A stretch of DNA of 49,385 nucleotides from Deltaproteobacteria bacterium (GTDB taxonomy: Bacteria; Myxococcota_A; UBA9160; SMWR01): NCBI GenBank assembly GCA_004356735.1, contig SMWR01000072.1, positions 1-49,385 on the forward strand, read 5' to 3'. A model generated the notes under the pieces. It did not search any database. It saw only the letters and a list, made by a program, of their open reading frames with translations, and had not been told where the DNA came from. Below are positions 6,866 to 40,614 of this stretch, one piece after another. The translations under genes and the position numbers were made by a program. Numbering within the stretch: the first letter of the stretch is position 1; every line of letters starts with the position of its first letter.

Positions 6866-8266
6866 TCAGTCGGAAGCGACAGAGAGCGCGCGTTTGATCG
6901 CAGCCTCGAGCTCGATCTCGTCCTCGTCGAGAAGCGTGCGGACGTCGAGTAGCAGCTCGTCGTCGTGGATGCGCGCGAGCACGGGCACCGGGGCTTGGCG
7001 CAGGCGTTCCGCCAGCCGCTGCGCGCCGCCTTCGGCGCGCACCGCGACGGCAACGCCCGGTAGCTCGAAGCCGGGTAGCGATCCCCCGCCGACCAGGCCA
7101 GGCTCGGCCAGGCAGCGGAACGACGCCCTGGCACCCACCGCCTTCTCCAGCCGCTCGGCCAGACGCTGGGCGCGTCGTTCGAGCCGCTCCAGCGGTGCGG
7201 TCAGCAGGGCGAGAACGGGGATGTCGCGCTCGGCGCGGCCGTCCAGGTAGGCGTTCAGGGTCCAGTCGAGGGCGGCCAGGCCGAGCTTGTCCAGTCGAAG
7301 TGCGCGAGCCAACGGATTGCGCCGCAGCGCGTCCACGAGATCGGTGCGCCCCAGCAAGATCCCCGCCTGAGGTCCTCCGAGCAGCTTGTCGCCGGAGAAA
7401 CAGACCAGATCGGCACCTTGACGCAATCGGCCCGGGGCCCAGGCTTCGGCCGGAAGCCCCGGAATCTGCACCAGCGTTCCGCTCCCGAGATCCTCGACCA
7501 CGGGGAGTCCCCGGCGCCGCCCGAGTTCGGATAGCTCCGACAGACCGACTTCGGACACAAAGCCGCGCTGTTCGAAGTTGCTGCGGTGCACCTTCAGCAG
7601 CAGGGCGGTCTCGTCACCGATGGCCCGTTCGTAATCCGCGAGATGGGTGCGATTGGTCGCCCCGACCTCGACCAGGACCACACCCGAGCGCTCCATGATC
7701 TCGGGCACCCGAAAGGAGCCGCCGATCTCCACCAGTTCGCCCCGGGAGACGACCACCTGACGCCCCAATGCCAACGTGTTGAGCACCAGGAGCACGGCCG
7801 CGGCGTTGTTGTTCACCGCGAAGGCGGCCTCGGCCCCCGAGAGCCGCGCGAGCTTGTCGGAGACCGCCGCCAAGCGGTCCCCGCGGCGCCCCGTCTCCAG
7901 GTCGAGCTCCAGATCTACGTAGCGGGAGGCCGCGGCCGCGACCGCCTCAGCCGCCCCGGGCGCCAGCGGCGCCCGGCCCAGGTTCGTGTGGAGAACGATG
8001 CCGGTGGCGTTGATGACCCGCTGGGGATGGGGTGCCAGCAAGCGCCAAGCGCGCCGCAGGGCCCGTTCCAGCAGCTGGGCCTCGGCTAGCGGGGGTCGAG
8101 ATGCATTGAGAACGTGTTCGCGTTCATGCTGGATCTCGATCCGGGCCGCCTCCACCGCTGTCCATTTCGGCAGCGTGGGCTCGTGCCGGCGCAGGCTTCG
8201 CGCCAGCCGCTCGACCGACGGAAGCTCCCTGCGGGGATCCGGCTTGACCTCGGACTGGGGTTTCAT
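6866..8266 (-). CDS. selA: L-seryl-tRNA(Sec) selenium transferase
   Basis: INATGIVLHTNLGRAPL, VNNNAAAVLL, VVSRGELVEIGGSFRVPEIM, LLKVHRSNF and CFSGDKLLGGPQAGILLG (PLP lysine) are SelA hallmarks. SD GAGGGA precedes the ATG. Confidence 0.9.
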   Translation of the reverse strand: MKPQSEVKPDPRRELPSVERLARSLRRHEPTLPKWTAVEAARIEIQHEREHVLNASRPPLAEAQLLERALRRAWRLLAPHPQRVINATGIVLHTNLGRAPLAPGAAEAVAAAASRYVDLELDLETGRRGDRLAAVSDKLARLSGAEAAFAVNNNAAAVLLVLNTLALGRQVVVSRGELVEIGGSFRVPEIMERSGVVLVEVGATNRTHLADYERAIGDETALLLKVHRSNFEQRGFVSEVGLSELSELGRRRGLPVVEDLGSGTLVQIPGLPAEAWAPGRLRQGADLVCFSGDKLLGGPQAGILLGRTDLVDALRRNPLARALRLDKLGLAALDWTLNAYLDGRAERDIPVLALLTAPLERLERRAQRLAERLEKAVGARASFRCLAEPGLVGGGSLPGFELPGVAVAVRAEGGAQRLAERLRQAPVPVLARIHDDELLLDVRTLLDEDEIELEAAIKRALSVASD

Positions 8267-17471: not shown

Positions 17472-18257
17472 ATGAAGCAGTGGCTGCTCGAGCTGCGCGA
17501 GCTGATCCTGCCGACGGTCTGCGCGGGCTGTGGGAGGTCGGTCGAGCCCGCGACGGTCCTCTGTCCGCCTTGCGACGCGGCCCTGCCGCGGTTCGAGATT
17601 CCCGGGCCCACCCCGCCCGGACTCGACGCCTGCGTTGCGGCCGCCGAATATTCCGCGGCCACCGAGCTCTGGATTCGCCGCTTCAAGTATCCGAAGCCCG
17701 GCCTCGCCGGAATCGACACGGCTGCGGGAAGTGTCGTCCGCATGCTCGCGTGCGAGGCGGCAGCGCGTGCCCCGGGCGAACCGCCCGCTCTGGTGCTGCC
17801 GGTCCCGCTGCATCCCAGACGCCTTGCGGCCCGCGGTTTCAACCCGGCCGGCCTGCTGGCCCGGAGCGTGGCCAGAGCCGTGAGGATCCCGATGGATGCG
17901 CGCGCGCTGCGACGGATTCACGACACGCCGACCCAGACCGGGCTCGGTGCAGCGGATCGGCGCCGCAACGTTCGCGGTGCGTTTCGGGCGATGCGGTCGC
18001 TACCGCATGCGATCTGGCTCGTGGACGACGTGACCACCACCGGGAGCACGTTGTCCGAGATCGCTCGCGTCTGCCGCGCGGCCGGGGCGCGGCAGATCGT
18101 CGCTCTCTGCGCAGCAGCGACACCAGGCCCGAGGCAGGCGCCCGGGACGACGGCTGGCGTACAACAGGCGACATCCCCGTTGCCTGCTACGAACGGTTCC
18201 GAGAGGTCGTTTCGATCAGGACTTCACAGAGACGCTTCGGATCGACCGGCTTCTTGA
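17472..18257 (+). CDS. comF: ComF family protein (phosphoribosyltransferase domain)
   Basis: N-terminal CxxC..CxxC zinc motif (CAGCGRS..CPPCD), RGFNPA, PRTase motif WLVDDVTTTGSTL. The C-terminal ~45 aa overlaps the convergent gene by 71 nt, so the exact end is uncertain. Confidence 0.8.
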   Translation: MKQWLLELRELILPTVCAGCGRSVEPATVLCPPCDAALPRFEIPGPTPPGLDACVAAAEYSAATELWIRRFKYPKPGLAGIDTAAGSVVRMLACEAAARAPGEPPALVLPVPLHPRRLAARGFNPAGLLARSVARAVRIPMDARALRRIHDTPTQTGLGAADRRRNVRGAFRAMRSLPHAIWLVDDVTTTGSTLSEIARVCRAAGARQIVALCAAATPGPRQAPGTTAGVQQATSPLPATNGSERSFRSGLHRDASDRPAS

Positions 18258-19254
18258 AGATCACGCCTTCCAGGCCCTCGAGGCGACTGCGCTTGATCAC
18301 GTGATCCCGGTCGTAATGGAAGGCCGTCATCATCAGCACCGGCAGCTTCGGATGGCGCTGATGGATCGAGCGATACAGCTCATAACCGTCCATCTTGGGC
18401 ATCACGACGTCGGTGAGCACCACGTCGAACGGTGCGTTGTCGAGCTGTCGGAGACCCTCGACACCATCGCCTGCGGTTGAGACTTTGCAGCCCTCGATCT
18501 CCAGGACCTCCTTCATGGTGCGACAGATGCCCAGGTCGTCGTCCACTACCAGGATGCGTAGGCCTTCCAGACGATGATCCGACGCGGGCTCGTAATGGCG
18601 TCGCAGATCGATCATGCGCGACGGGCCCACGTACTGGATCGTCTCGTAGTGCTCGGTTTCCACCATCTGACCCAGGCGTTCGAGGATCTCGCTGATGCGT
18701 CCGATCTCTCGGCGCATGGCGTCGAGGCGCTCGGTCTCCACCGAGGAGTCGCTCTCGCCCGCCAGCCGGTTGATGTCACCCTCGAGTAGCTCGACCTGGT
18801 TGAGGATCACGGCCAGCGGGTTGTTGATTTCGTGGCTGACGCCGATCGCTACCTCACCGAGGGTGGCCAGCTGGTCCTTGCGCAGGATCTCGCGCAGGTC
18901 CTTGGCGAAGCCGATCGTACCATCTTCGCGTTCCTCATCGTCGGTGAGGATGGTTCCCGAAATCGCAACCGGAATTTCTTCACCCGTCTTGGAGAGGAAC
19001 GTGGTCAGGAAGGTCTCGACGATGCGCAAGCCGCCATATTCGGGACTGCGCATGGCGGCCATCACGCGCTTTGCCTCTTCGAGGCTGGGATAGAGCTGGG
19101 CCGAGTAGCGTCCGAGAATCTCATCCTGGGTGTAACCCAGGATCTTCGACGCCCCGTCGTTGTAGTACGAAACCATCCCCTTGCGGTCCGTGGCCACGAC
19201 GATGTCCGTGGACCGCGCGATCAGCTGCTCCAATCTCTCCTTCGTCAGCGCCAC
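18187..19254 (-). CDS. PAS - HisKA(DHp) - receiver protein lacking an HATPase_c domain
   Basis: PAS: IVVATDRKGMVSYYNDGASKILGY. H-box: LGEVAIGVSHEINNPLAVI. Receiver: RILVVDDDLGICR...VLTDVVMPKMDG...KKP. Only about 45 aa separate the DHp helices from the receiver. GTG start. Confidence 0.85.
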   Translation of the reverse strand: MALTKERLEQLIARSTDIVVATDRKGMVSYYNDGASKILGYTQDEILGRYSAQLYPSLEEAKRVMAAMRSPEYGGLRIVETFLTTFLSKTGEEIPVAISGTILTDDEEREDGTIGFAKDLREILRKDQLATLGEVAIGVSHEINNPLAVILNQVELLEGDINRLAGESDSSVETERLDAMRREIGRISEILERLGQMVETEHYETIQYVGPSRMIDLRRHYEPASDHRLEGLRILVVDDDLGICRTMKEVLEIEGCKVSTAGDGVEGLRQLDNAPFDVVLTDVVMPKMDGYELYRSIHQRHPKLPVLMMTAFHYDRDHVIKRSRLEGLEGVIFKKPVDPKRLCEVLIETTSRNRS

Positions 19255-19475: not shown

Positions 19476-20681
19476 TCACCCGATCTCCTGCTCGGCCAGC
19501 CAGCGCTCGGTGTCGATCGCAGCCATGCAGCCGGTGCCGGCGGCCGTGACTGCCTGGCGGTAGACGGGATCCATGGCATCGCCGCAGGCAAACACACCTT
19601 CGAGATTGGTCCGACTGGTTGACGGCTCCACTTTGATATATCCGAGGTCGTCGAGCTCGACCTGGCCGCGGAAGATCTCGGTATTGGGCTGGTGTCCAAT
19701 CGCCACGAAGACCGCCTCCAGCGGGATCTCGCGCGTCTGGTTCGTCTTCACGTCGCGCAGCCGAACGCCGGTCACGAACTCTTCACCCAGGATCTCGTCC
19801 ACCACCGAGTTCCAGGCCGGCTCGATCTTTTCATTGCCGAGCACCCGTTCCTGCATGATCTTCGAAGCCCGCAGCTCGTCGCGCCGGTGAACCAGAGTCA
19901 CTTTGGTCGCGAAGCGCGTCAGGAAAAGAGCCTCTTCCAAGGCGGTATCGCCGCCGCCGATCACGGCCATCGGCTTGTTGCGGAAAAGCGCCCCATCGCA
20001 GGTGGCGCAGGCCGAGACACCCTTGTTCAAGAGCCGGGTCTCGGAGTCGATGCCCAGCCACTTGGCCGATGCCCCGGTCGCCAGGATGACGGCATCCGCG
20101 GTGTAGGCCCGCTCGGCCGTTCGGATCTTGAACGGCCGTTCCGACAGGTCGACCTCGGTAGCGTCCTCCATCAGGACCTGGGCGCCGAAGCGCTCCGCCT
20201 GCTTCTGGAAGAGCTCCATCATCTCGGGACCGGTCACCCCCTCGGGAAAGCCCGGATAGTTCTCGACATCGGTGGTCAACATCAGCTGACCGCCGAACTG
20301 CAGGCCTGCGATCAGCAGCGGCGCCAGCTCCGCCCGGGCGGTGTAGAGCGCGGCCGTATAGCCGGCCGGTCCGCTCCCGATGATCACCACGCGTCGGTGT
20401 TCCGACTCCATTCGTGTTTCCACCTCCCGCTCGAGCAGCGCGTCCAGTTTCCCAGCGTCTTCCAGGGCCTTCAAGTCGTCGAAGCCGCCCACGTGCTCGC
20501 CCCCAATGAAGATCTGGGGAACGCTGCGACGCCCGCCGCTGCGCTCGACCATCTCTTCCAAGCGGGCGTACGAGGTTTCGACGTCGATCTCGGTCCAGTC
20601 CTGACCCTTCTGGGTCAACAGCCGCTTGGCCATATCGCAGTAGGGACACCATCCCTTGGAGTAGACGATGATCTCGGGCAC
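19476..20681 (-). CDS. trxB: glutaredoxin - thioredoxin reductase in-frame fusion
   Basis: Residues 1-85 form a complete GrxC-like domain (CPYC, TVPQIFIGGEHVGGFDDL). From residue 91, MESEHRRVVIIGSGPAGYTAA...CATCDG...GGGDTA..FACGD is a full low-Mr TrxR. GTG start. Confidence 0.88.
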   Translation of the reverse strand: MPEIIVYSKGWCPYCDMAKRLLTQKGQDWTEIDVETSYARLEEMVERSGGRRSVPQIFIGGEHVGGFDDLKALEDAGKLDALLEREVETRMESEHRRVVIIGSGPAGYTAALYTARAELAPLLIAGLQFGGQLMLTTDVENYPGFPEGVTGPEMMELFQKQAERFGAQVLMEDATEVDLSERPFKIRTAERAYTADAVILATGASAKWLGIDSETRLLNKGVSACATCDGALFRNKPMAVIGGGDTALEEALFLTRFATKVTLVHRRDELRASKIMQERVLGNEKIEPAWNSVVDEILGEEFVTGVRLRDVKTNQTREIPLEAVFVAIGHQPNTEIFRGQVELDDLGYIKVEPSTSRTNLEGVFACGDAMDPVYRQAVTAAGTGCMAAIDTERWLAEQEIG

Positions 20682-30541: not shown

Positions 30542-31653
30542 GGCGGGGATAGACCCTGGAGCCGATCCCGGATTGCATTGGGGATCTCCTCCTCGGGCAT
30601 GCCCGAGGCGAGCAGGGATACCACCTCCGCGGTTAGGGCATCGACCTGTGCAGCGTTCATCTTCAGGCCGCGAACGTCTATCTCTTGCTGGATGCCCTGC
30701 TTCACCCGCTGCGCCGTCAGCTTCTGCCGCACCAGCTGCGCGGCTTCGGCGCGGGACCTGCCTTGGAGGGCAACGTTGATCATGTCGGTGACGAGCTGCT
30801 CCTTCTCGTCGTCTTCGAGTCTGACAGCCGATTCCTTCAAGATGATGTCGAGCTGCTTCTTGGTCTCGTTGCGGACCACGCTGCTGCTGGCGACGCCCCG
30901 TCGGAAGCCGGCCTCCTGAATTTCCTTCTGGGAGCGCTTCTCGAGCTGGCCGACGGCGCCCGAGCGACGCATGATGAACCTGCCCTTGCGGCTGCCGTCG
31001 CGGTCGAAGCTTCCGCGCAGGACGCCGCCGCCCTCGTCGACCTTCGTCGTCTCCCAGCGGGTGGCGCCCTCCATGGTCTCGCTGAGCCCGGAGCCCATCA
31101 CGTCGAGCTGCTCGAAGCGGGGAAGGTCAAGCAGGCCCTGGATGCTCCAGTTCTCCTCGAAGGTAATGATCGAGGCCGAGCCCGGCCGGGCGCGGCCCGT
31201 CGATTTCCAGCCACCGGCGTCGGAGCCGCGCAGGGTCTTCTTCTTCTGTCCGCGGTTGTTGATCTTGAGACCGCTACTGATATTGGCGAGCTGGGCTTCG
31301 CTGGGCTCCCAGGCACCGAGCACCCGGGCCAGACCGGCCTGACGTCGTTCGAAGCGCCCCGACTCATTGCTGAAGACGACGATCGGATACTCGATCCAGC
31401 TGAGCCGACTGCCCTTCATTTCGAAGACCCAGACGCGGTCGCTCCAGCGCAGCTGATCGGGCCTGGACGTGTTGGCATCCGTGTAGTGGATCAGCACGTG
31501 CCAGGTTCCGACCAGATCCAGCGGGGCAATCGGGGCGATCTGGGCGGCGGCCCTTCCGGGGAGCAGGAGAGCGAGCAGCAGGAAGGGCGCGACGCGCCTC
31601 GAAACGATGCGGGTCGCTAGATGCTTCGTTCGATGTCGGGGAAGCTGCGCCAT
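30538..31653 (-). CDS. secreted hypothetical protein
   Basis: Signal peptide RRVAPFLLLALLLPGRAAAQ, followed by a beta-rich region and a Lys/Glu-rich helical C-terminus. ATG 31653 (alternative TTG 31668) overlaps the thyX 3' end. Confidence 0.65.
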   Translation of the reverse strand: MAQLPRHRTKHLATRIVSRRVAPFLLLALLLPGRAAAQIAPIAPLDLVGTWHVLIHYTDANTSRPDQLRWSDRVWVFEMKGSRLSWIEYPIVVFSNESGRFERRQAGLARVLGAWEPSEAQLANISSGLKINNRGQKKKTLRGSDAGGWKSTGRARPGSASIITFEENWSIQGLLDLPRFEQLDVMGSGLSETMEGATRWETTKVDEGGGVLRGSFDRDGSRKGRFIMRRSGAVGQLEKRSQKEIQEAGFRRGVASSSVVRNETKKQLDIILKESAVRLEDDEKEQLVTDMINVALQGRSRAEAAQLVRQKLTAQRVKQGIQQEIDVRGLKMNAAQVDALTAEVVSLLASGMPEEEIPNAIRDRLQGLSPP

Positions 31654-33152
31654 ACCGGCACTCCGCAAAAGTGCGAGCCTTCAGTGCAGCGGGGTCTCAC
31701 GAGACCCGAGCGGACAAAGCAGGGCGGGCCCACGTGTTCGACCAGCTTCGGGTGGATCTCGCGCACCTGTTCCACCTCTTCCATGGACGCCTGGAAGATC
31801 TCGCGTTGGGCGTTGAGACAGGTCCGCAGGGTCCACTTGTGGATCAGGTCGAGGAGCGTTCCCGACTCTTCGAAGCGCACGGCCAGGGCGTTGGGCAACA
31901 CGTAGAGGGCGAGTTCGGGCTCGACGCCCAGCCGCAGCAACCGGTCCCTCGCGGACCACGATGCCTCGACGGCCTCGACGAAAACGGCGTGGGCGCCGCG
32001 GTCGTTGCGGATCAGCTCGGGCTCGATCACGTCGACGTGGCCGGGCACCGTGCGCGACAGCAGCGGGCGCGAGCCGGGCACCGTGCGGTGACGCTGGTCT
32101 TGGGAGTCGGCCGTGTGGGACAACTTCTTGCGGAAGGTGAAGTGCGCGTGGGCCAGGGTGCGCATCAGGGGCGAATGGGTCGAGACGTTCAGCGTCTCGA
32201 GCAGATAGGGATTCTTCGCCGGGTCCAGGACCAGCTCGAGAGCCGCGTCGTCGTCGAGGTCGCTTCGACCGAGCACGTGGCGCACCGCCCCGGCGATCAC
32301 CTCGGGGCCACGGGCGCTCCAGTCGATGAGTCGCGCGCTCTTTCCTTCGAGGGACTTGTCGAATGCCTCACAGGCGGCGGAATCGCCCAGACCGGGCGGC
32401 GCCAAGCTGCGCTCTGGCGTCTGCTCGAGCGGGAGCGGCGCGTCGCCGACCCGCGAGAAGAAGTCCGGGTCCAGCCGCTCGACCTTCGCCACCATGCGGC
32501 CCACCACGTCGGCCGCCTCCTGGGGCGTGTCGCCAACGTTCATCATGCGCCGCAGTCGGTACAGAACCAGGCCCGAAATCGTGTAGACCATGGCCGTGTG
32601 ACACGCGATCGGGATCACGTAGCGCGCGGTCTCGATGGCCTTCTTTTCGGCCTCGCGCCGCACGTTCTTCCCGAACTCGACGTTCTGGCGATCCTTGAGA
32701 CGCCAGAGATCCGAAAGGATTTCGCCCGTCACGGGTTCGAGCCGCTGGGTCAGCTCGCGGTAGGCCGACCAGCCGTGCTCGAGGGCGGCCTCGAAGATCG
32801 CCCGGGCTTCAGCGTCGAGCCCCGGCGGAACATGGGCCGCGACCTGATCGAGCTTGACGTAGCGCTGACTCTGCTGCTCGGTGTTGTAGTAAGGGAATCC
32901 GTGCAAGAAGGTCCAGACGAGCTGGCGCGAGATTCCCGACAGGGCGAACTCGAAAGTGGCATGCTGAAACACCGTATGGTGTCCGCCCTTGAAGGTCAGC
33001 GGGCCGATGCGGGCGCGCTGTCCGTCGGTGATCTCGTCCGCATCGATGACGCGGGACGAATAGCAGGTCCGCGCAGCAGAAATCGCATCGTCATACGGAC
33101 GATCGAACCAGTTGCGAAGTCGGACCTCCGGACCCGTGTCGACGACAGTCAC
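31617..33152 (-). CDS. thyX: FAD-dependent thymidylate synthase, tandem-domain (pseudo-dimeric) form
   Basis: First half: GGHHTVFQHATFEFALSGISRQLVW..EQQSQRYV, with the RHR motif degenerate. Second half: HFTFRKKLSHTADSQDQRHRTVPGSR, with RHR intact. GTG 33152 is preceded by GGAGGGGGAG at a 6-nt spacing; the track ORF extends further, to 33359. Confidence 0.8.
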   Translation of the reverse strand: MTVVDTGPEVRLRNWFDRPYDDAISAARTCYSSRVIDADEITDGQRARIGPLTFKGGHHTVFQHATFEFALSGISRQLVWTFLHGFPYYNTEQQSQRYVKLDQVAAHVPPGLDAEARAIFEAALEHGWSAYRELTQRLEPVTGEILSDLWRLKDRQNVEFGKNVRREAEKKAIETARYVIPIACHTAMVYTISGLVLYRLRRMMNVGDTPQEAADVVGRMVAKVERLDPDFFSRVGDAPLPLEQTPERSLAPPGLGDSAACEAFDKSLEGKSARLIDWSARGPEVIAGAVRHVLGRSDLDDDAALELVLDPAKNPYLLETLNVSTHSPLMRTLAHAHFTFRKKLSHTADSQDQRHRTVPGSRPLLSRTVPGHVDVIEPELIRNDRGAHAVFVEAVEASWSARDRLLRLGVEPELALYVLPNALAVRFEESGTLLDLIHKWTLRTCLNAQREIFQASMEEVEQVREIHPKLVEHVGPPCFVRSGLVRPRCTEGSHFCGVPVWRSFPDIERSI

Positions 33153-33328
33153 ACTCCCCCTCCGCAACCTACTCTGACAGACACTTCGACCCCCTTCAAC
33201 AATCATACGGGTGATGGGGGAAGGTTGCGGACGCGTCCCCGCCGGAGATCCGCCGGCCGCCAGGCGCCGCGGGCACTTCGGCCGCCAATCGGACCCGTCG
33301 CCCCGGCCGCACCGACCGGGGATCCGAT

Positions 33329-33372
33329 GGCAGACGCCGCCTGCCGGGCCGGCAGACACCGCCCGCCGGGCC
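33329..33372 (+). repeat. two tandem 22-bp repeats, candidate enhancer (UAS) for the downstream sigma-54 promoter
   Basis: GGCAGACGCCGCCTGCCGGGCC / GGCAGACACCGCCCGCCGGGCC (20/22 identical). Their junction forms the palindrome CTGCCGG-G-CCGGCAG (33341-33355). They lie 190-230 bp upstream of the -24 box. Confidence 0.5.
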
Positions 33373-33558
33373 GCGTGAGTGGAATGGAGTGGACGGGGCC
33401 GCGAGAAAGGGGTGCAATGGGCTTCTCAATAATCCCGTTGAGAGTGGAAACTTGCATTTTCACGGATCCGGCTGGCCGCCTTTCGCCTGAAGGACTGACC
33501 CTTTTCTTTCAAGGGCTTCGGGTGTGGAGTTGCGGCTTGGGCACGGGCGTCCTGCCGC

Positions 33559-33573
33559 TGGCACAGGGATTGC
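33559..33573 (+). promoter_or_regulatory. sigma-54 (RpoN) -24/-12 promoter
   Basis: TGGCAC-AGGGA-TTGC matches TGGCAC-N5-TTGC exactly. It lies 80 nt upstream of ATG 33653, in a 500-nt divergent intergenic region. Confidence 0.75.
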
Positions 33574-33652
33574 CGTAGCAGGCACTGGAGGCGTTCGCGC
33601 GGAGGCCGACGGAGGTTGTGGGTCGCAGCGCGGAACTGCCGGTTTCGAAGCC

Positions 33653-35695
33653 ATGACATCACTCTGGATCGTGCATCGCGAGCCCTACTTCCGGGCCGCC
33701 CTCGGGCGGCTGGCGGCGGCCTCCGGTTCGGTCCTCGAGGGCCCCCCGGGCGACGCTTGCTTCGACCCGGAACGGGCTCCCGAGGTGGTCGTGCTGGGTC
33801 TCTCGGGCGACCTGGAGAGCGAGCTCGAGTTCGCCCACCGCACCGCACCGCGAATGCGCCTGACGGGCTGGGTCGCGGTGGCCGAGCGGCACCGGCTCGA
33901 GTTCGCGAGGCAGCTCTTCGACACGCTGCCAGCGGAGTTCCTGATCTGGCCACCCCAAGCCACGGTGCTGCGCGATGCCATCCGGCGCGCGGCCCTGCGC
34001 GGCAGCGAATCGCCGCTGGCGCTCTCGATGCGACCCGAACGCGACGCCCTGAGTGAGCACTTCGCCCGCGCCTTCGCGGATCTCGAGATGCCCGGGCTGC
34101 TGCGGGCCATGGACCCGCGTCTGCTCCAGGTACCCCTGCTGATCCGGGGCGAGCCGGGCACCGGCCGCGAGACCCTGGCCCGCTACGTACACCGCTTCGG
34201 GCCCACCGCACGCGGTCCGCTGGTGCAGATCGTGAGCCGACGGGATTCGACGGCCTCTGGCCTGCTGGAGCGGATCGATGCAGCGCTTCGCGACCGCGCG
34301 ACCTCACGCATCACCACCTTCTGGCTGCAGGACGCGGACCAGCTCGACCCTGCGGTGCAATGCGAAGTCGCCGGATGGATCGCCTACGGACTACCCGCGG
34401 GGACGCCCCGAGCCAGCACCGTGCGTTGGATCGTGAGCAGCCAACCGGTGGGCCTGACGGTGGAGCTGCAGCGCTGCGCCGGCGGGCTCTCGATCGAAAT
34501 CCCGCCGCTGCGCGATCGTTCCCACGCCATCGCCCATCTCGCCAGCAGCACGGCGCTGGCCTGGTGTAGCAGCCGGGGCCTGCGGCCGCGCCGCATCGAC
34601 GAGTATGCGCTCTTCGAGCTGAGCGAGTATCCGTGGCCGGGCAATCTCGGCGAGCTCGAAGCCGTAATCGCGCAATCACTGGCCGCGACGGCGCGCGATC
34701 CCCTCAAGACCGAAGACCTGATCCTCGACGGCGAGCCCTTCGCCGCCGTCGACGCCGAGTCGCTGGGTAGCCTGCTCGATTCCGACGAGGCCAGCGACGA
34801 GGCCAGCGACGAAGCCACCCGCATCGCGGTCGTCGAGGCAGATGCCGCCGAAGCAGCGACCGATGAGCCCCCGGCGGAGCTGATCACCGAGATGGAGGAG
34901 GTCGCGATTCCGATCGAGGCGCTCGAGGGCAGCGCAGCCGCCCCCGAACCCGCAGGGGTGACGCAGGCCGCCCTGCCGGAGCTCGAGACCGTAATCGCCG
35001 AGCCGGCGACTCCCATCGGCGAAGCCTGGCTGAAGCGGCTCTCGGGAGCCATGAGTCACGAGGTGCGCAACCCGCTCACGGCCCTCCGCACCTTCACACA
35101 GCTCCTGCCCGAACGCCATGCCGACGAAGAATTCCGAGACCGTTTCGCTCAATACGCCGCCGAGGGTCTCGACAGAATCGAGGGAGTCCTGACCGGGCTC
35201 GACCGCTTGGCGGCGTTCCGAGAGCCAGAGCCGCGCCCCGTGGACGTGGGACGCATGCTCGAGGAGCTGCTCGACAAACGGCGGAACACGATCCACGAGC
35301 GACGCCTGCTGGTGCTCGAGGAGCTCGACCGCAGCTGGCCCGAGGCCATCGGCGATCCGGAGCAACTGCGGTTCGCGTTCGAATCGCTGCTCGACAAGGC
35401 CCTCGAGCTCGTCCCGGAGCGCGGCGACCTCTACATCGCATCGAAGCGCCACGAGTCGGGTCTGCGCTCGCAGCCGAGCGTTCGGATCCTGCTGCGCTAT
35501 CGCGGTCCCGAAGCTGGCGACGCAGCAGCCCAGATCACCGATCTCTCGCCGGCCGCGAACGCACTGGCATTCGCCATCGCCGAGCTGCTCGTGCAGGCAC
35601 AGCACGGCAGCTTCGCCCTCGACACCAGCGACCGCAACGAGACCCTGGTCGTGATCGACCTGCCCGCCGAAAGCGTGAAGACGGGGGCGGCCTAA
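33653..35695 (+). CDS. fusion protein: degenerate NtrC-like AAA+ (sigma-54 interaction) module plus HisKA with a degenerate ATP-binding domain
   Basis: AAA+ part: LLIRGEPGTGRE (Walker A Lys replaced by Arg), no GAFTGA loop, Walker B region TFWLQDADQL, but the signature YPWPGNLGELEAVI is kept. An acidic linker follows (SDEASDEASDEA). H-box: LSGAMSHEVRNPLTAL. CA region: LLDKALE (N-box Asn replaced by Lys), no DxGxG, and ANALAFAIAELLVQAQHG in place of GxGLGLaIv..iv..HgG. Confidence 0.8.
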   Translation: MTSLWIVHREPYFRAALGRLAAASGSVLEGPPGDACFDPERAPEVVVLGLSGDLESELEFAHRTAPRMRLTGWVAVAERHRLEFARQLFDTLPAEFLIWPPQATVLRDAIRRAALRGSESPLALSMRPERDALSEHFARAFADLEMPGLLRAMDPRLLQVPLLIRGEPGTGRETLARYVHRFGPTARGPLVQIVSRRDSTASGLLERIDAALRDRATSRITTFWLQDADQLDPAVQCEVAGWIAYGLPAGTPRASTVRWIVSSQPVGLTVELQRCAGGLSIEIPPLRDRSHAIAHLASSTALAWCSSRGLRPRRIDEYALFELSEYPWPGNLGELEAVIAQSLAATARDPLKTEDLILDGEPFAAVDAESLGSLLDSDEASDEASDEATRIAVVEADAAEAATDEPPAELITEMEEVAIPIEALEGSAAAPEPAGVTQAALPELETVIAEPATPIGEAWLKRLSGAMSHEVRNPLTALRTFTQLLPERHADEEFRDRFAQYAAEGLDRIEGVLTGLDRLAAFREPEPRPVDVGRMLEELLDKRRNTIHERRLLVLEELDRSWPEAIGDPEQLRFAFESLLDKALELVPERGDLYIASKRHESGLRSQPSVRILLRYRGPEAGDAAAQITDLSPAANALAFAIAELLVQAQHGSFALDTSDRNETLVVIDLPAESVKTGAA

Positions 35696-35822: not shown

Positions 35823-37199
<1,377 letters not shown>

Positions 37200-37285: not shown

Positions 37286-37472
37286 CGGGTGTTCCGATCG
37301 GAACAGGTCGGAAAAGTCAATTATTGCAGTGAGTTATCTTGAATTCTTGGATCCTCCGTACACATCGGAACAGCTGCCGCCTGTGTCGGCCACATCACGA
37401 GCCGTCGCCCAAACGTCCCAGACTCCTTGAATTTCAAGCGCTTGAGACGCTGCCTGCTGGTTTTCCTGCGGC

Positions 37473-37488
37473 TGGCACAGGCCTTGCT
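37473..37488 (+). promoter_or_regulatory. sigma-54 (RpoN) -24/-12 promoter
   Basis: TGGCAC-AGGCC-TTGCT is an exact TGGCAC-N5-TTGCW consensus. Its -12 element (37484-37488) ends 44 nt upstream of ATG 37532. Confidence 0.8.
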
Positions 37489-37531: not shown

Positions 37532-38722
37532 ATGGCAGATCGAGACCGACGACCCACGATCCTGGTGGCCGACGACGAGCGCGGGCCGCGCGAGTCGCTG
37601 CGCATGATCCTGGAACCCACTCACAAAGTTCTCCAGGCCGAGAGCGGAGTGGAAGCGCTCGAGATCCTCCGCACCGAGTCCGTCGATCTGCTCACTCTCG
37701 ATCTCAACATGCCCGGCATGAAGGGCGAGGAAGTGATGCGCACGGTTCGGGCCGAGTATCCGAACGTCGAGATCATCGTGATCACGGGCTGCGGCACGGT
37801 CGAGAGTGCTGCGGAAGGCGTCCGCTACGGGATCTGCGATTACCTTCAGAAGCCATTCGACGTTGTGGCGGTAACGGCGGCCGTGATGCGCGCTCTGATA
37901 CGACGCCGTTCGCGTTCGCGGCTGACGAGCTTCCTGGAAGAACTCGGACAGGTGATGGGCCGCGACACCGACGTGCATCGGCTGCTGGGTGACGTGGAGA
38001 AGAGCCAGAAGCTCCGCGGTCGCCTGGCCGGACTCTTCAGCGAGAGCGGCGGGCCCGGCCCGGACGAAAAAGCCCAGAATGAGCGGGCGCGCAGCGTCGA
38101 GTTCCTCGAGGTTCTGGCCGAGACGATCGAGACCAAGGACCGCTTCATGCGCGGCCACGCCCGGCGCGTCGCCTTCTACGCAAGCCTGATGGCCGACCGC
38201 CTGAATCTCGGCGCCCAGGAGCGGGAAGAGGTCCGCATGGCGGCCTTCCTCCACGACCTGGGCAAGGTCGGTGTGCCAACTGACCTGCTGCTCTGTACAA
38301 CCGCGCTCACACCGGAAGAACGCACCATCGTTGAGGAGCATCCGATCATCGGCGCGCGACTCGTGAAGCCCCTCGACATCCCGACGTCGATCGGGCTGGC
38401 GATCCACCATCACCACGAATGGTGGGATGGCACGGGTTATCCCGATGGGCTGGCCGGCGAGGAGATCCCGCTGACGGCGCGGATCATCGGCGTCGTCGAC
38501 GCCTTCGACGCCATGAACTCGGACCGCCCCTATCGACGGGCGCTCGACCGGACGCTCGTGATCGCCGAGCTCGAACGTTGCGGCGGGACGCAGTTTGACC
38601 CGGTCCTCGCCAAGGAGTTCGTGGTGCTCCTGGAGACTGGCGTCTGCGATCTGGACCCGGCGCTGCTGGCGAACCTGGTCGGCGACACAGACCGCGCCCG
38701 TACGGCAACGACATCACAGTAG
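37532..38722 (+). CDS. response regulator with HD-GYP domain (RpfG-like c-di-GMP phosphodiesterase)
   Basis: Receiver: ILVADDERGPRE..LTLDLNMPGMKG..LQKPF. HD-GYP: RGHARRVA..FLHDLGKVGVP..EEHPIIG..IHHHHEWWDGTGYPDGL..DAFDAMNSDRPYR. Confidence 0.92.
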   Translation: MADRDRRPTILVADDERGPRESLRMILEPTHKVLQAESGVEALEILRTESVDLLTLDLNMPGMKGEEVMRTVRAEYPNVEIIVITGCGTVESAAEGVRYGICDYLQKPFDVVAVTAAVMRALIRRRSRSRLTSFLEELGQVMGRDTDVHRLLGDVEKSQKLRGRLAGLFSESGGPGPDEKAQNERARSVEFLEVLAETIETKDRFMRGHARRVAFYASLMADRLNLGAQEREEVRMAAFLHDLGKVGVPTDLLLCTTALTPEERTIVEEHPIIGARLVKPLDIPTSIGLAIHHHHEWWDGTGYPDGLAGEEIPLTARIIGVVDAFDAMNSDRPYRRALDRTLVIAELERCGGTQFDPVLAKEFVVLLETGVCDLDPALLANLVGDTDRARTATTSQ

Positions 38723-38742: not shown

Positions 38743-39129
38743 ATGGCAGCGAACACCGAACCTCTCGCCTTCTCGTTGGATGCAGTCCGACCGCAGCGCA
38801 TCCGGTGCGAGCCGCGTGCCGACACGGTCCGTATCGTTCACTACACACGCTTCCCGCGCATGGGCCCTGACTCGGCGTGGCGCGTCGGCTTCAGCCGCGA
38901 TCTGTCGGCCTATGGCCTCTGCATCGGCGCGGACGATCCGGAGGGACCGGGAAGCCTGCTGCGCGTGATCATCCGCGAGATCGACGGCCGTGCGACGCGA
39001 CCCAGCATCGTCCGGGTGGCCTGGTGCGCCGAAGCCGGAGACGACCGCTACTGGATCGGGCTCGAGCAGCTCACGGTCGGCCCCACCGCGGCCCGGGAAA
39101 CAGGCAACGCAGTCGATGCTTCGCTTTGA
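38743..39129 (+). CDS. PilZ-domain-like protein (128 aa)
   Basis: RIRCEPR (RxxxR), then 29 residues later DLSAYG (DxSxxG), the two c-di-GMP-binding PilZ motifs at normal spacing. Strong SD GGGGGAGGAG 7 nt before the ATG. Starts 20 nt after the HD-GYP gene stop. Confidence 0.65.
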   Translation: MAANTEPLAFSLDAVRPQRIRCEPRADTVRIVHYTRFPRMGPDSAWRVGFSRDLSAYGLCIGADDPEGPGSLLRVIIREIDGRATRPSIVRVAWCAEAGDDRYWIGLEQLTVGPTAARETGNAVDASL

Positions 39130-39490
39130 CCAAGGGGGGCGTTCGAGGAGGTCCCGGGCAGGGAACACCTGGGGCCTCCTCGAAACCTTGACCCGAAGCG
39201 CCACGCTTTCACCCTGGGGAAACTGCGGCGGGCATCGAGCGACTGCTCGAGGCCTCCCGGTCCATCCCCTGGTCAGAACTCCCGAGCCGGCACAAGTGAG
39301 ATGAGAGGTTGGACAGTCCTGGGGTGATCGAAGGGGCCCCGCACCGCATCACGGGGCCTCTTCGACATCCTCGCCAACGCCTCATCGGTCGGGCGCCGGG
39401 ACCGGGGTTGAGGCCGAGTGCGTGCCGGCGGCGGCGCCTGATCGAACCCGATCGGGACTTCCAGAGTCTGATCGGAAGGACTCCTGGGGC

Positions 39491-39541
39491 GCAGCTGCGG
39501 GCGAGCCGGCCTCCAGCCGGCTCGCCCGCAGCTGCGTTTTT
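39491..39541 (+). terminator. strong Rho-independent terminator (20-bp perfect stem, 5-nt loop, T5 tail)
   Basis: GCAGCTGCGGGCGAGCCGGC-CTCCA-GCCGGCTCGCCCGCAGCTGC followed by G-TTTTT (39537-39541). Ends 20 nt upstream of the tatA/B ATG. Confidence 0.85.
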
Positions 39542-39560
39542 GGGGCTAATCTCTGCCTCG

Positions 39561-39860
39561 ATGTTTGGCATCGGGATGACGGAGCTGATGGTGATCCTCG
39601 TGATCGCCCTGCTGGTACTGGGGCCCAAGCGGCTGCCCGAGATGGCGCGGTCGCTCGGCAAGGGTCTCACCGAGTTCCGCCGTGCTTCCGGGGACTTGCG
39701 CCGGGAGTTCACGGCCGTTGCCGACCAAGCCCGGATCGACCCCGCGGACCTGAACTCGGACGAAGACACGGCCTCGAACGGGGACAGGCCGGCTGGCGAG
39801 ACGGCTGCCCCCGCGAAGACACCGGCGGAGACGGAGCCCCAGACTCCCAGCGATGGATGA
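39561..39860 (+). CDS. tatB: twin-arginine translocase TatA/TatB family subunit
   Basis: MFGIGMTELMVILVIALLVLGPKRLPEMARSLGKGL, then an amphipathic region and an acidic tail. The N-terminus looks more TatB-like (MF.IG..EL, GP.RLP). Overlaps the tatC start by 8 nt. Confidence 0.85.
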   Translation: MFGIGMTELMVILVIALLVLGPKRLPEMARSLGKGLTEFRRASGDLRREFTAVADQARIDPADLNSDEDTASNGDRPAGETAAPAKTPAETEPQTPSDG

Positions 39861-40614
39861 CGCCAAGCTCCCCCTGATCGACCACCTGGCGGAGCTGCGC
39901 GCCCGGATCTTCAAGGTCCTGATCGCGTGTGTCATCGGCACCGCCCTTGCGTGGAACTTCAAGGAAGACATCTTCGGCTTCCTGATGAAGCCCGCGGTTG
40001 CCGCGCTTGGCGATGAGGCGGGCAAGCTTCAAGCGATCGCGCCGACCGAGATCTTCTTCACCTACGTGAAGTGCGCGCTTCTCACGGGCGTGGTCTTCGC
40101 GCTGCCCGTGATCTTCTGGCAGGCCTGGTCGTTCGTGGCACCCGGTCTCTACCCGGGCGAAAAGCGCGCCGTGATGCCCTTCGTGCTCTGCTCGACCCTG
40201 CTCTTCGCCGGGGGCGCCGTTTTCGGCTACTCGATGGTGTTCCCGCTGATGTTCGACTTCCTGACCGGGTTCGACAGCGAGTTCGTGGTCTCCGCCTGGA
40301 CCATGCGCGAGGTCTTCGCGATCACGACGCGCCTCTTCCTGGCATTCGGCGTGGCCTTCGAGCTGCCGGTGCTCGTCTTCTTCCTGTCGGTGGCCGGGAT
40401 CGTCGACGCTCCGACGCTGTTTCGCGGCACGCCCTATGCCGTGCTGATCATCTTCGTCACCGCAGCGCTCCTGACACCGCCCGACTGGGTCAGCCAGGTC
40501 TTCCTGGCCGTGCCCATGATCGGACTCTATCTGCTCGGCGTGGGCGTGGCCTGGGCATTCGGCGGTAATCGCCGACGTGAGCGCGCAGAGGACGAAGCAA
40601 CCGAGCGCTCCTAG
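39853..40614 (+). CDS. tatC: twin-arginine translocase subunit TatC
   Basis: LIDHLAELRARIFKVLI..., six hydrophobic segments, LLTPPDWVSQ motif. Confidence 0.92.
   Translation: MDDAKLPLIDHLAELRARIFKVLIACVIGTALAWNFKEDIFGFLMKPAVAALGDEAGKLQAIAPTEIFFTYVKCALLTGVVFALPVIFWQAWSFVAPGLYPGEKRAVMPFVLCSTLLFAGGAVFGYSMVFPLMFDFLTGFDSEFVVSAWTMREVFAITTRLFLAFGVAFELPVLVFFLSVAGIVDAPTLFRGTPYAVLIIFVTAALLTPPDWVSQVFLAVPMIGLYLLGVGVAWAFGGNRRRERAEDEATERS

Follow-up and report, generated by a model that had tools for sequence, protein, structure and literature searches.

A conserved fusion of a degenerate NtrC-type receiver-AAA+ module and an ATP-blind histidine kinase core, encoded next to an NtrC-type regulator gene in uncultured Myxococcota

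Introduction

Two-component signaling and sigma-54-dependent transcription are usually built from separate parts: a kinase, a receiver (REC), an AAA+ motor and a DNA-binding domain. Some described proteins use these parts in other ways. RetS of Pseudomonas and DivL of Caulobacter are pseudo-kinases with a histidine kinase (HK) fold that signal through protein-protein contacts rather than canonical autophosphorylation. NifL, which is HK-like, inhibits the enhancer-binding protein (EBP) NifA by binding its AAA+ domain, and HrpR and HrpS form obligate mixed rings. Here we describe a gene in which the usual parts are fused. It lies at 33653..35695 on the forward strand of contig SMWR01000072.1 of a Deltaproteobacteria bacterium (GenBank assembly GCA_004356735.1; Myxococcota_A, UBA9160), of which we analyzed positions 1 to 49,385, hereafter the window. 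Its 680-residue product joins an activator minus its DNA-binding domain to a kinase core, with the chemistry disabled in three of the four domains and with purifying selection across hundreds of lineages.

Of the kinase-derived proteins closest to it in design, ChpT lacks autophosphorylation, and its ATP lid is altered (PMC3433190). In PhyT/PhyP the ATPase domain has degenerated; an initial interpretation as a phosphatase gave way to that of a phosphotransferase, and Spo0B is a further dimeric, ATP-blind histidine protein derived from a kinase (PMC5898713). On the activator side, VpsR has lost its sigma-54 contact residues (PMC6158489). A preliminary description of the window, made from the nucleotide sequence, had read the gene as a single polypeptide that fuses a "dead" AAA+ module of a sigma-54 activator to an HK with a "dead" ATP-binding domain, and had found no described family in which to place it. 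We followed up this reading with profile, structural and comparative analyses.

Results

A single gene encodes a four-domain fusion conserved in uncultured Myxococcota

The open reading frame (ORF) at 33653..35695 is unbroken, running for 680 codons from an ATG, while the remaining forward frames contain 19 and 4 stops (the G+C content of the window is about 66%). Because the alternative, longer start, a GTG at 33524, sits 5' of a positionally conserved sigma-54 promoter element at 33559-33574, the ATG at 33653 is likely the start codon. Pfam recognized HisKA at residues 461-513 (E 1.5e-8) and AAA_lid_14 at residues 287-356. The Sigma54_activat match was a stub covering residues 159-193, and the scores for Sigma54_activat (20.7 bits) and Sigma54_activ_2 (25.8 bits) were barely over the cut-offs; HATPase_c, Response_reg and HTH_8 were all unmatched in the 680-residue protein. 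NCBIfam returned partial matches to AtoS (1e-13), CreC and PhoR in the C-terminal half and to NifA, PspF, NtrC and FlgR in the lid region, all of them generic and far under the equivalog cut-offs of the families.

AlphaFold2, run on a 57-sequence alignment, modeled the full protein at a predicted local distance difference test score (pLDDT) of 84.9, and residues 445-680 alone at pLDDT 86 and a predicted TM-score (pTM) of 0.82. Foldseek matched the N-terminal ~400 residues to the REC and AAA+ domains of NtrX, NtrC1 (in its inactive state), NtrC4, LuxO, VpsR and FleQ, and the C-terminal half to HK853, RetS, KinB, DivL, SrrB and CusS. A family profile searched against the PDB gave VpsR (2.5e-27), FlrC (1.4e-26), NtrC1 (2.6e-26) and PspF (1.6e-22), and also matched, with E 3e-15, the complete dimerization and histidine phosphotransfer (DHp) and catalytic and ATP-binding (CA) domains of ZraS. 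The unbroken frame, the profile searches and the structure prediction all support the single polypeptide originally proposed, with four domains and a linker laid out as follows.

33653..35695, forward strand: the family gene, encoding the 680-residue fusion of pseudo-receiver, degenerate EBP AAA+, acidic linker, DHp and pseudo-CA (ORF, Pfam, homologues, AlphaFold2)
33653..34003, forward strand: pseudo-receiver, residues 1-117 (AlphaFold2 fold; Foldseek to NtrC1, NtrX and NtrC4; column counts)
34022..34687, forward strand: degenerate NtrC-type AAA+ plus lid, residues 124-345 (profile matches, Pfam lid, column statistics)
34763..35002, forward strand: disordered linker rich in acidic residues, Pro and Ala, residues 371-450 (AlphaFold2 pLDDT <50, Tandem Repeats Finder, dN/dS)
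35021..35215, forward strand: DHp (HisKA) hairpin, residues 457-521 (Pfam HisKA; ZraS and KinB alignments)
35234..35665, forward strand: pseudo-CA, residues 528-671 (ZraS alignment; Foldseek to HK853, RetS, DivL and KinB; dN/dS)

A word-indexed search yielded 409 homologues. The best 120 of these 409 were full length (620-805 aa), carried the same Pfam signature and were 43-56% identical to the window protein, save the two closest at 99% and 87%. An exhaustive profile search of 1.84 billion representatives gave 371 clusters (50% identity) at E<=1e-30. The named sources of homologues were Myxococcota, Myxococcales or "Deltaproteobacteria" metagenome-assembled genomes (MAGs), and in the species-representative genome set true members were found in 5 species, every one a Myxococcota MAG. 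A scan of metagenome contigs, in which the YPWPGN pattern drew in mostly ordinary EBPs, added only 4 true loci. All motif column counts given below were taken over 121 family sequences.

To gauge selection, we calculated Nei-Gojobori dN/dS against an 86%-identical orthologue (locus L171). The overall value was 0.30, made up of 0.26 in the pseudo-receiver, 0.30 in the AAA+ domain, 0.15 in the DHp (the lowest), 0.21 in the CA-like domain and 0.65 in the linker; the receiver of the partner NtrC gave 0.30, a noisy value from few substitutions. All folded domains are under purifying selection. The words "dead" and "fossil" in the preliminary description are therefore not apt for a protein with values of 0.15-0.30 across its folded domains and a nearly invariant P-loop.

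These data also bear on the concern that the frame could be an artefact or a decaying pseudogene, that is, an EBP gene and an HK gene joined by an indel in the linker, or a remnant. The linker does contain a slippage-prone 12-nt repeat (2.9 in-frame copies at 34783-34817, encoding SDEASDEASDEA), and adjacent EBP-then-HK pairs in other phyla can be joined by tblastn. Such joining accounted for apparent AAA+-HK fusions in Rhizobiaceae, Desulfobaccales, NC10, Binatia, Vicinamibacterales and others, which inspection of the ORFs showed to be adjacent genes. Family members, however, are full-length single ORFs with the same domain order in 409 matches and 371 clusters, and many independent assemblies contributed to these; alignment columns without any variation number in the dozens and dN/dS is low in every folded domain; and the helix-turn-helix (HTH) of the EBP and the sensor part of the HK are both missing, which would not be expected from simple read-through. 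The number of homologues, the invariant columns and purifying selection thus refute this explanation, whose probability we regard as negligible, and the linker indel that the preliminary description had itself put forward as a possible flaw is answered by the fusion being full length in hundreds of homologues.

Full-text literature searches found no description of the four-domain architecture, and no curated Pfam or NCBIfam model covered it in full over its cut-off, in line with the earlier failure to place it in a described family. So far as these searches reached, the fusion is a conserved, undescribed signaling protein of uncultured Myxococcota.

The kinase half retains the phospho-acceptor histidine beside a degenerate CA domain

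Across the family, the linker varies from 41 to 173 aa and is rich in E, P and A. In the window protein it is followed, as had been proposed, by an intact H-box, SHEVRNPLTAL, of the NtrB/ZraS type (HEVRNPL), in which the phospho-acceptor H469 is encoded by codon 35057-35059. H469 and E470 are each present in 117/121 sequences, R472 in 121/121, N473 in 104/121 and P474 in 119/121. The ExxN motif in the H box serves the phosphatase activity of HisKA kinases, and the H box of the 680-residue protein includes this motif.

The domain that follows keeps a Bergerat-like alpha/beta fold, as judged by AlphaFold2 and Foldseek. When aligned to ZraS, the N-box Asn is replaced by K, R or A family-wide, with LLDKALE standing for the N box in the window protein. 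The G1 Asp has become a hydrophobic residue within the run R-V-L-L-R, both arginines of which (R611 and R615) are invariant, and the G2 box of ZraS, GTGLGL, aligns to xENALEF (an xNaLxf pattern family-wide). The invariant polar residues of this domain are D568, R611, R615, N636 and E663-T664. The absence of the N-box Asn and of the G1 and G2 boxes, first read by eye, is thus borne out by the ZraS alignment and by the missing HATPase_c match. The C-terminal half has lost every Bergerat residue that binds Mg-ATP, a loss that would make canonical autophosphorylation impossible.

The REC-AAA+ half keeps its folds and surfaces but not its catalytic residues

The N-terminal ~130 residues had been described as receiver-like without a recognizable acidic pocket, and both parts of this description held. 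The AlphaFold2 model has the (beta-alpha)5 fold of a receiver, with strands and helices at E4-7, H11-20, E28-30, E45-50, H55-67, E72-77, H79-88, E94-98 and H103-117, all at pLDDT >87, and the Foldseek alignments extend over ~400 columns. The acidic pair of a receiver is replaced by H8-R9 (in 111/121 and 115/121), the position of the phospho-Asp is G49 in 120/121, and the Lys-Pro pair has become P100-P101.

In the AAA+ domain, the Walker A sequence GEPGTGRE (34148-34171; RGEPGTGRE with its preceding residue) has Arg in place of Lys in 120/121 sequences, and the Lys is retained in a sister clade only. The glycines and the Glu of the P-loop G-E-P-G-T-G-R are invariant among the 121 sequences, as is Y178. 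The Walker B region reads TFWLQDADQL, with Q226 and D227 at the positions equivalent to DE and with E, A or L followed by D, G or E across the family. In HMMER alignments to FlrC and VpsR, ~11 residues are deleted at the L1/GAFTGA loop and another ~7 ahead of the R-finger region, and no GAFTGA-like string was found in the 680-residue protein. These alignments agree with the preliminary description on the Walker A Arg, the missing GAFTGA loop and the altered Walker B region, and profile searches recovered no intact ATP lid or Walker motifs that it might have overlooked. The retained family signatures also stood: RGEPGTGRE, IPPLRDR and YPWPGNLGELE are all present, with PPLRxR and YPWPGN-L-x-ELE (near-)invariant in the family. 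A correction concerns the sensor II Arg, which is found in 97/121 relatives and is Gly in the window protein. Of five EBP features tested, the protein has one and lacks four; likewise it has the fold of a receiver but not the phospho-acceptor. Being homologous to EBPs and receivers but without their defining residues, it cannot be filed as a member of either.

A Lys-to-Arg change in the P-loop of AAA+ and other P-loop proteins typically leaves nucleotide binding intact and abolishes hydrolysis. Because GEPGTGR is nearly invariant, the P-loop seems frozen rather than decayed, which suggests that nucleotide binding has been retained without hydrolysis. Two further ideas about this half were set aside. 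When the N-terminal half was compared with the partner NtrC by BLASTP, identity was ~28%, the middle of the alignment was unreliable, and there was no sign of a recent duplication from that protein. The AAA+ domain might bind cyclic di-GMP (c-di-GMP), like the AAA+ domains of FleQ and VpsR, an idea prompted by VpsR as the top match and by the neighboring HD-GYP and PilZ genes; the Arg that follows Walker A is generic to EBPs and no diagnostic motif was found, leaving this as speculation.

The near invariance of the P-loop is also a point in favor of a non-canonical autokinase, in which ATP held in a remodeled CA pocket or by the Arg-substituted P-loop would phosphorylate H469. The invariant polar residues of the CA-like domain (listed above) could form such a different pocket, and the family protein is the sole HK-like partner in the window's operon. 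Nla6S (MXAN_4043) is reportedly an atypical myxobacterial kinase with an atypical CA domain, and ATP binding in a remodeled CA pocket has been claimed for it. Its gene in Myxococcus neighbors an NtrC-like gene, Nla6 (PMC3892784). An autokinase nevertheless strikes us as very unlikely: all canonical Bergerat Mg-ATP ligands are absent family-wide, a disordered linker of 41-173 residues parts the P-loop from the His, and the normal kinase encoded next door in the sister clade (see below) makes an intrinsic kinase activity unneeded. We know of no AAA+ domain that serves as phosphate donor to a DHp His, which counts further against this idea, and the version in which the Arg-substituted P-loop supplies the phosphate to H469 is highly improbable at best.

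The surfaces kept by this half raise a different alternative, that of an anti-activator or decoy whose REC-AAA+ half would join the partner or another EBP and cap or poison its hexamer, with the DHp-pseudoCA serving mainly to dimerize. The AAA+ fold, the lid, PPLRER and WPGNLRELE are all conserved, as is a linker helix of the kind found in inactive dimers of the NtrC1 type, and expression of the family gene from its own sigma-54 promoter would provide negative feedback. The action of NifL on NifA and the mixed rings of HrpR/HrpS are precedents. However, the most constrained region of the protein is the DHp and not the AAA+ domain, which counts against a decoy as the sole function, and at ~28% identity to the partner AAA+ nothing indicates co-evolution of a ring interface. 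Taken with the comparative data below, an anti-activator is in our view unlikely, if credible.

Loss of the phospho-acceptor histidine is associated with absence of the adjacent NtrC gene

A complete NtrC-type gene lies 30-230 nt 3' of the family gene in 17/20 loci. Where it is absent, the phospho-His is replaced in all three cases, by R in L084, Q in L169 and E in L165; L084 and L169 are mutually related, and L165 comes from a divergent clade. In the 17 loci with the NtrC gene, the His is kept in 15 and absent in 2 (Q in L168, T in L170). This association has a one-sided Fisher p of 0.009, uncorrected for phylogeny. With two exceptions, then, His and ExxN are kept wherever an NtrC gene adjoins, and the NtrC-less loci have no adjacent EBP to poison, both of which weigh against the anti-activator introduced above. 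The L168 protein (P0037) reads QEVRNPL, so that ExxN is kept and the His is gone with the NtrC gene present. Phosphatase-only H139N mutants of NtrB are said to combine ExxN with loss of the His in the same way.

In the divergent clade (P0228, P0233, P0235 and others), the His has been lost and the P-loop is broken (GxxGT[R/A/E]R). These proteins retain the fold-defining and surface motifs, and their genes retain the same chromosomal position and the sigma-54 promoter. Survival of the family after loss of the His and, in this one clade, breakage of the P-loop suggests a structural role and is a point for the anti-activator.

A sister clade (P0260 and P0264-P0275) is less degenerate. Its receiver keeps DD and KPF with the phospho-Asp already Gly; its AAA+ domain keeps the Walker A Lys (GERGTGKS) but has "EE" at Walker B and no GAFTGA loop; and there is no HTH, the H box is intact and the CA domain is already degenerate. 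Two of its loci have an intact (HisKA_7TM-)GAF-HisKA-HATPase_c kinase gene directly 5' of the family gene (5544..7733 in L172 and 6172..7629 in L173), giving the order GAF kinase, family gene, NtrC gene. The N box (NLLNNA) and G2 box (GTGLGL) of this kinase are normal, and its DHp helix 1, LAHEIRNPLVAVKTFLQLLPERLDDEEFR, shares ~70% identity with the corresponding helix of the family protein. A kinase, a pseudo-kinase and an NtrC thus probably formed an ancestral three-gene module. With an intact GAF-HK directly upstream in the sister clade, the family protein is recast as a non-kinase, and thus would be an ATP-blind paralogue of a real NtrB-type kinase with a near-identical helix for docking the receiver. 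The locus appears to have lost its linked kinase in the clade to which the window belongs.

The family gene lies between conserved sigma-54 promoter elements and c-di-GMP genes

In the window and 19 further family loci, the gene order is strongly conserved: a divergent thyX-like gene, the family gene, the NtrC-type gene, a REC-HD-GYP and/or PilZ gene, and tatA-tatC. The elements around the family gene in the window are listed below.

33444..33463, no strand assigned: conserved dyad-like element GTGGAAACTTGCATTTTCAC, candidate activator site ~100-150 nt 5' of the -24 element
33559..33574, forward strand: sigma-54 -24/-12 promoter P1, TGGCACAGGGATTGCC, 80 nt 5' of the ATG (conserved position)
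35823..37199, forward strand: partner NtrC-type response regulator with complete REC-AAA+-HTH (Pfam Sigma54_activat E 1e-72, Response_reg, HTH_8)
37290..37305, no strand assigned: perfect dyad TGTTCCGATCGGAACA (TGTTCC-N4-GGAACA), candidate enhancer (upstream activating sequence, UAS) for P2 (recurrent paired dyads)
37473..37488, forward strand: sigma-54 promoter P2, TGGCACAGGCCTTGCT, 44 nt 5' of the REC-HD-GYP gene (perfect match)
37532..38722, forward strand: REC-HD-GYP (HD_5) protein, putative c-di-GMP phosphodiesterase (Pfam HD_5 E 8e-40, Response_reg E 8e-24)
38743..39129, forward strand: small PilZ-like protein, putative c-di-GMP receptor (weak Pfam PilZ match, E 0.0026, below cut-off)

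Matches of the P1 type occur at chance frequency within the window alone, and P1 is credited as a promoter because of its conserved position: TGGCAC-N5-TTGC lies 31-100 nt 5' of the family gene in 18/18 loci with upstream DNA, the window included (16 perfect matches and 2 with one mismatch). The two claims made earlier about the setting of the gene, a sigma-54 promoter upstream and a functional NtrC-type gene next door, thus both stand, the latter on a complete set of Pfam domains and on the pairing described above. The partner activator has canonical motifs throughout its REC (DD/D53/T/K), Walker A (GESGTGKE), Walker B (LFLDE) and HTH_8; it carries GAFTDA at residues ~217-222 in place of the canonical GAFTGA.

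Upstream of P1, a dyad of the form GTGAAA-N4-6-TTTC[CA]C recurs at an equal relative position in at least 14 loci of both clades (L001-L008, L084, L167-L170, L172 and L173), NtrC-less loci among them. In the window this element may serve the operon promoter as an upstream activator site, or it may be a regulatory site common to the operon and the divergent thyX gene. Because the dyad persists in loci without the NtrC gene, its binder may not be the adjacent NtrC. In appearance the dyad, which lies in the intergenic region between thyX and the family gene, is CRP/FNR-like or UAS-like. The divergent ThyX-type (Thy1) gene at 31617..33359 on the reverse strand encodes a protein of a group with 511-580 aa, about twice the usual length of ThyX, with two matched stretches and 70-79% identity across nearly all family loci.

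Between the partner gene and P2, the perfect dyad at 37290 is accompanied by a half-site-like second copy ~75 bp downstream (~37365). Paired GTTCS-N4-SGAAC dyads 68-80 bp apart were found in L002, L003, L005, L006, L086, L087 and L168, and single copies in L004, L007 and L085; the window contains 2 such dyads against 0.43 expected by chance. The dyads lie 100-190 nt 5' of the second sigma-54 promoter and are separated from it by an A/T-rich stretch that could be a site for integration host factor (IHF). A P2 counterpart is present 3' of the NtrC gene in 10 loci, and in this classic layout the dyads are probably the enhancer for an NtrC-type activator. The REC-HD-GYP protein has an intact receiver, and its gene is found in about half of the family loci; PilZ-like orthologues are encoded in L001, L002, L004, L007, L086, L087 and L168.

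The tatA and tatC genes (39300..40614, forward strand) lie on the same strand as, and always 3' of, the signaling genes in all related loci. In loci without the NtrC, HD-GYP and PilZ genes, the tat genes come directly after the family gene (55-250 nt) with no further sigma-54 promoter, and sigma-54-dependent Tat expression in this lineage is a possibility.

Elsewhere in the window, the gene at 18187..19254 (reverse strand) encodes a 355-aa protein in which PAS (6-122) is followed by HisKA (138-194), with the H box SHEINNPL, and by an intact receiver (234-345). HATPase_c is absent, with no space left for it, making this the second CA-less, His-bearing DHp protein in 49 kb; it could be a phosphorelay component. 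No HATPase_c was found among the scanned ORFs of the window, and Rfam and tRNA scans of the window gave no match. SelA (selenocysteine synthase) and a glutaredoxin-pyridine-nucleotide disulphide oxidoreductase fusion are encoded at 6866..8266 and 19476..20681, both on the reverse strand, and are unconnected to the finding.

The receivers encoded here allow a further alternative, a phosphorelay in which H469 would take phosphate from another receiver and pass it to D53 of the NtrC. Donors could include a hybrid kinase, the REC-HD-GYP protein or the PAS-HisKA-REC protein. A DHp with a pseudo-CA is the anatomy of ChpT, Spo0B and PhyT; the locus has two intact receivers, the window a second CA-less DHp-REC protein, and the sister clade an intact kinase upstream. 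The family protein's own receiver, on the other hand, lacks the phospho-Asp, there is no linked hybrid kinase, and the REC-HD-GYP gene is missing from about half of the loci. The kinase of the sister clade is non-hybrid (no REC), so a His-Asp-His-Asp chain is incomplete there. No donor receiver is consistently linked across the family loci, and D53 of NtrC is the adjacent candidate downstream. On balance we judge a relay intermediate distinctly unlikely.

Discussion

A non-kinase partner for the adjacent NtrC

From the domain anatomy and its conservation, the synteny, the positions of promoters and dyads, and the association of the His with the NtrC gene, all of which were observed directly, we infer the biochemical activities and the direction of phosphate flow that follow. 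The reading we tentatively favor, and would not be surprised to see either upheld or overturned, is that the family protein is a dimeric, non-kinase partner of the adjacent NtrC, acting as a phosphatase or sink or in a phosphate relay, with the N-terminal half for input or docking. Because the DHp is the most constrained part of the protein and H469, E470 and N473 are kept, the comparative data seem to favor action on the NtrC receiver through the His-bearing DHp. The layout of L172 and L173, where a real kinase and a pseudo-kinase with near-identical docking helices flank the same NtrC gene, adds to this. So do the presence of the pseudo-kinases RetS and DivL among the best structural matches and the precedents of ChpT, PhyT/PhyP and Spo0B.

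Under this mechanism, P1 would drive co-transcription of the family gene and ntrC, as the positions of the elements suggest. The DHp dimer would then dock the NtrC receiver without autokinase activity and, most likely, take the phosphate off NtrC~P, acting as a dedicated phosphatase or as a sink; it could instead shuttle phosphate between a separate kinase or receiver and NtrC in the manner of ChpT, Spo0B and PhyT. The N-terminal REC-AAA+ would be a regulatory input or docking module that binds nucleotide and does not hydrolyze it. It should no longer be phosphorylatable, hydrolyze ATP, contact sigma-54 or bind DNA; it has kept its lid and sensor-II surface, and may associate with either the AAA+ domain or the receiver of the true activator. 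NtrC bound at the dyads, together with P2, would drive the HD-GYP and PilZ genes and possibly tatAC, again as judged from element positions, and the family protein would supply feedback control over the output of these c-di-GMP genes.

Several observations weigh against the non-kinase partner. The association between the His and the NtrC gene comes down to at most two independent loss events, and L168 and L170 have no His although NtrC adjoins. The family persists behind its sigma-54 promoter in genomes without the adjacent NtrC gene, and one divergent clade has in addition lost the His together with the glycine of the P-loop; some of what the family does would therefore be independent of phosphoryl chemistry, of canonical nucleotide binding and of the adjacent NtrC. 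The loci of the window's clade have no operon-linked intact kinase. Finally, ChpT and Spo0B were neither among the PDB sequence matches (E<=0.01) nor in the top 50 Foldseek matches.

The non-kinase partner and the anti-activator are not mutually exclusive, and their combination would be a tethered decoy: a REC-AAA+ dimer that mimics the off state of NtrC would bind nucleotide and co-assemble with the activator, holding the ATP-blind DHp beside the activator's receiver. One hetero-complex would in this way couple the assembly, nucleotide and phosphorylation states of the activator. To our knowledge, such control of an enhancer-binding protein has not been described previously; we consider it an outside chance that deserves to be kept in view.

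Should the favored reading hold and the protein be a phosphatase or phosphotransferase, the small group of ATP-blind His proteins that descend from kinases would gain a new input module; should the protein also pair with the AAA+ ring of the activator, it would represent a new control mechanism for sigma-54 transcription. Nature offers a graded series of variants, from the sister clade (Walker A Lys, real kinase adjacent) through the window's clade (Arg) to the clade without the His and the P-loop. With c-di-GMP genes as the apparent output, sigma-54 control and second-messenger control may be connected through this module in Myxococcota of marine and sediment habitats.

Comparison with known systems

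The REC-AAA+ half is most like that of VpsR, NtrX and TyrR-like proteins, atypical EBP homologues that no longer work with sigma-54 and whose NtrC-type REC-AAA+ modules are without the sigma-54 contact residues; VpsR was the best profile match and NtrX the best structural match. In these regulators a C-terminal HTH is retained for action on DNA, whereas the family protein has the DHp-pseudoCA in its place and is also without Walker B, the Walker A Lys and the receiver Asp. The DHp-CA half has its best sequence matches in NtrB, ZraS and AtoS, with which it shares an HE[IV][RK]NPL H box and an operon with an NtrC-type regulator. Unlike them, it has no N-box Asn, G1 Asp or G2 glycines and no PAS, GAF or transmembrane sensor. 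By structure, RetS and DivL were among the top matches, RetS having the highest identity at 23-24%; these differ in having periplasmic or PAS sensors and GacS or DivK/CckA as partners, and they have neither an AAA+ domain nor an NtrC-type partner.

NifL-NifA and HrpV/HrpS-HrpR resemble the proposed pairing in that an EBP is controlled by direct contact with an HK-like protein or an extra AAA+ subunit. NifL, however, combines PAS domains with a GHKL domain that binds nucleotide and is without an AAA+ module, and HrpR and HrpS are each an active EBP in which the GAFTGA loop and the HTH are present. PexR of Myxococcus was considered as a comparable case and rejected as a canonical EBP.

In design, the closest parallels are ChpT of Caulobacter, Spo0B of Bacillus and PhyT of Sphingomonas, in each of which a DHp hairpin with a reactive His is joined to an ATP-blind CA-like domain and acts on response-regulator receivers without autokinase activity. 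The H box of the family protein, in contrast, is of the NtrB/ZraS HisKA type with ExxN, and its N-terminal module is a whole degenerate REC-AAA+ where theirs is a short or membrane sensor segment. As far as its sequence can tell, the resemblance is one of analogy, with an independent origin from a HisKA kinase of the NtrB/ZraS type. Each half of the protein is thus a known kind of degenerate signaling module; what is new is their fusion, their pairing with a true activator and, ancestrally, with a true kinase, and their graded degeneration.

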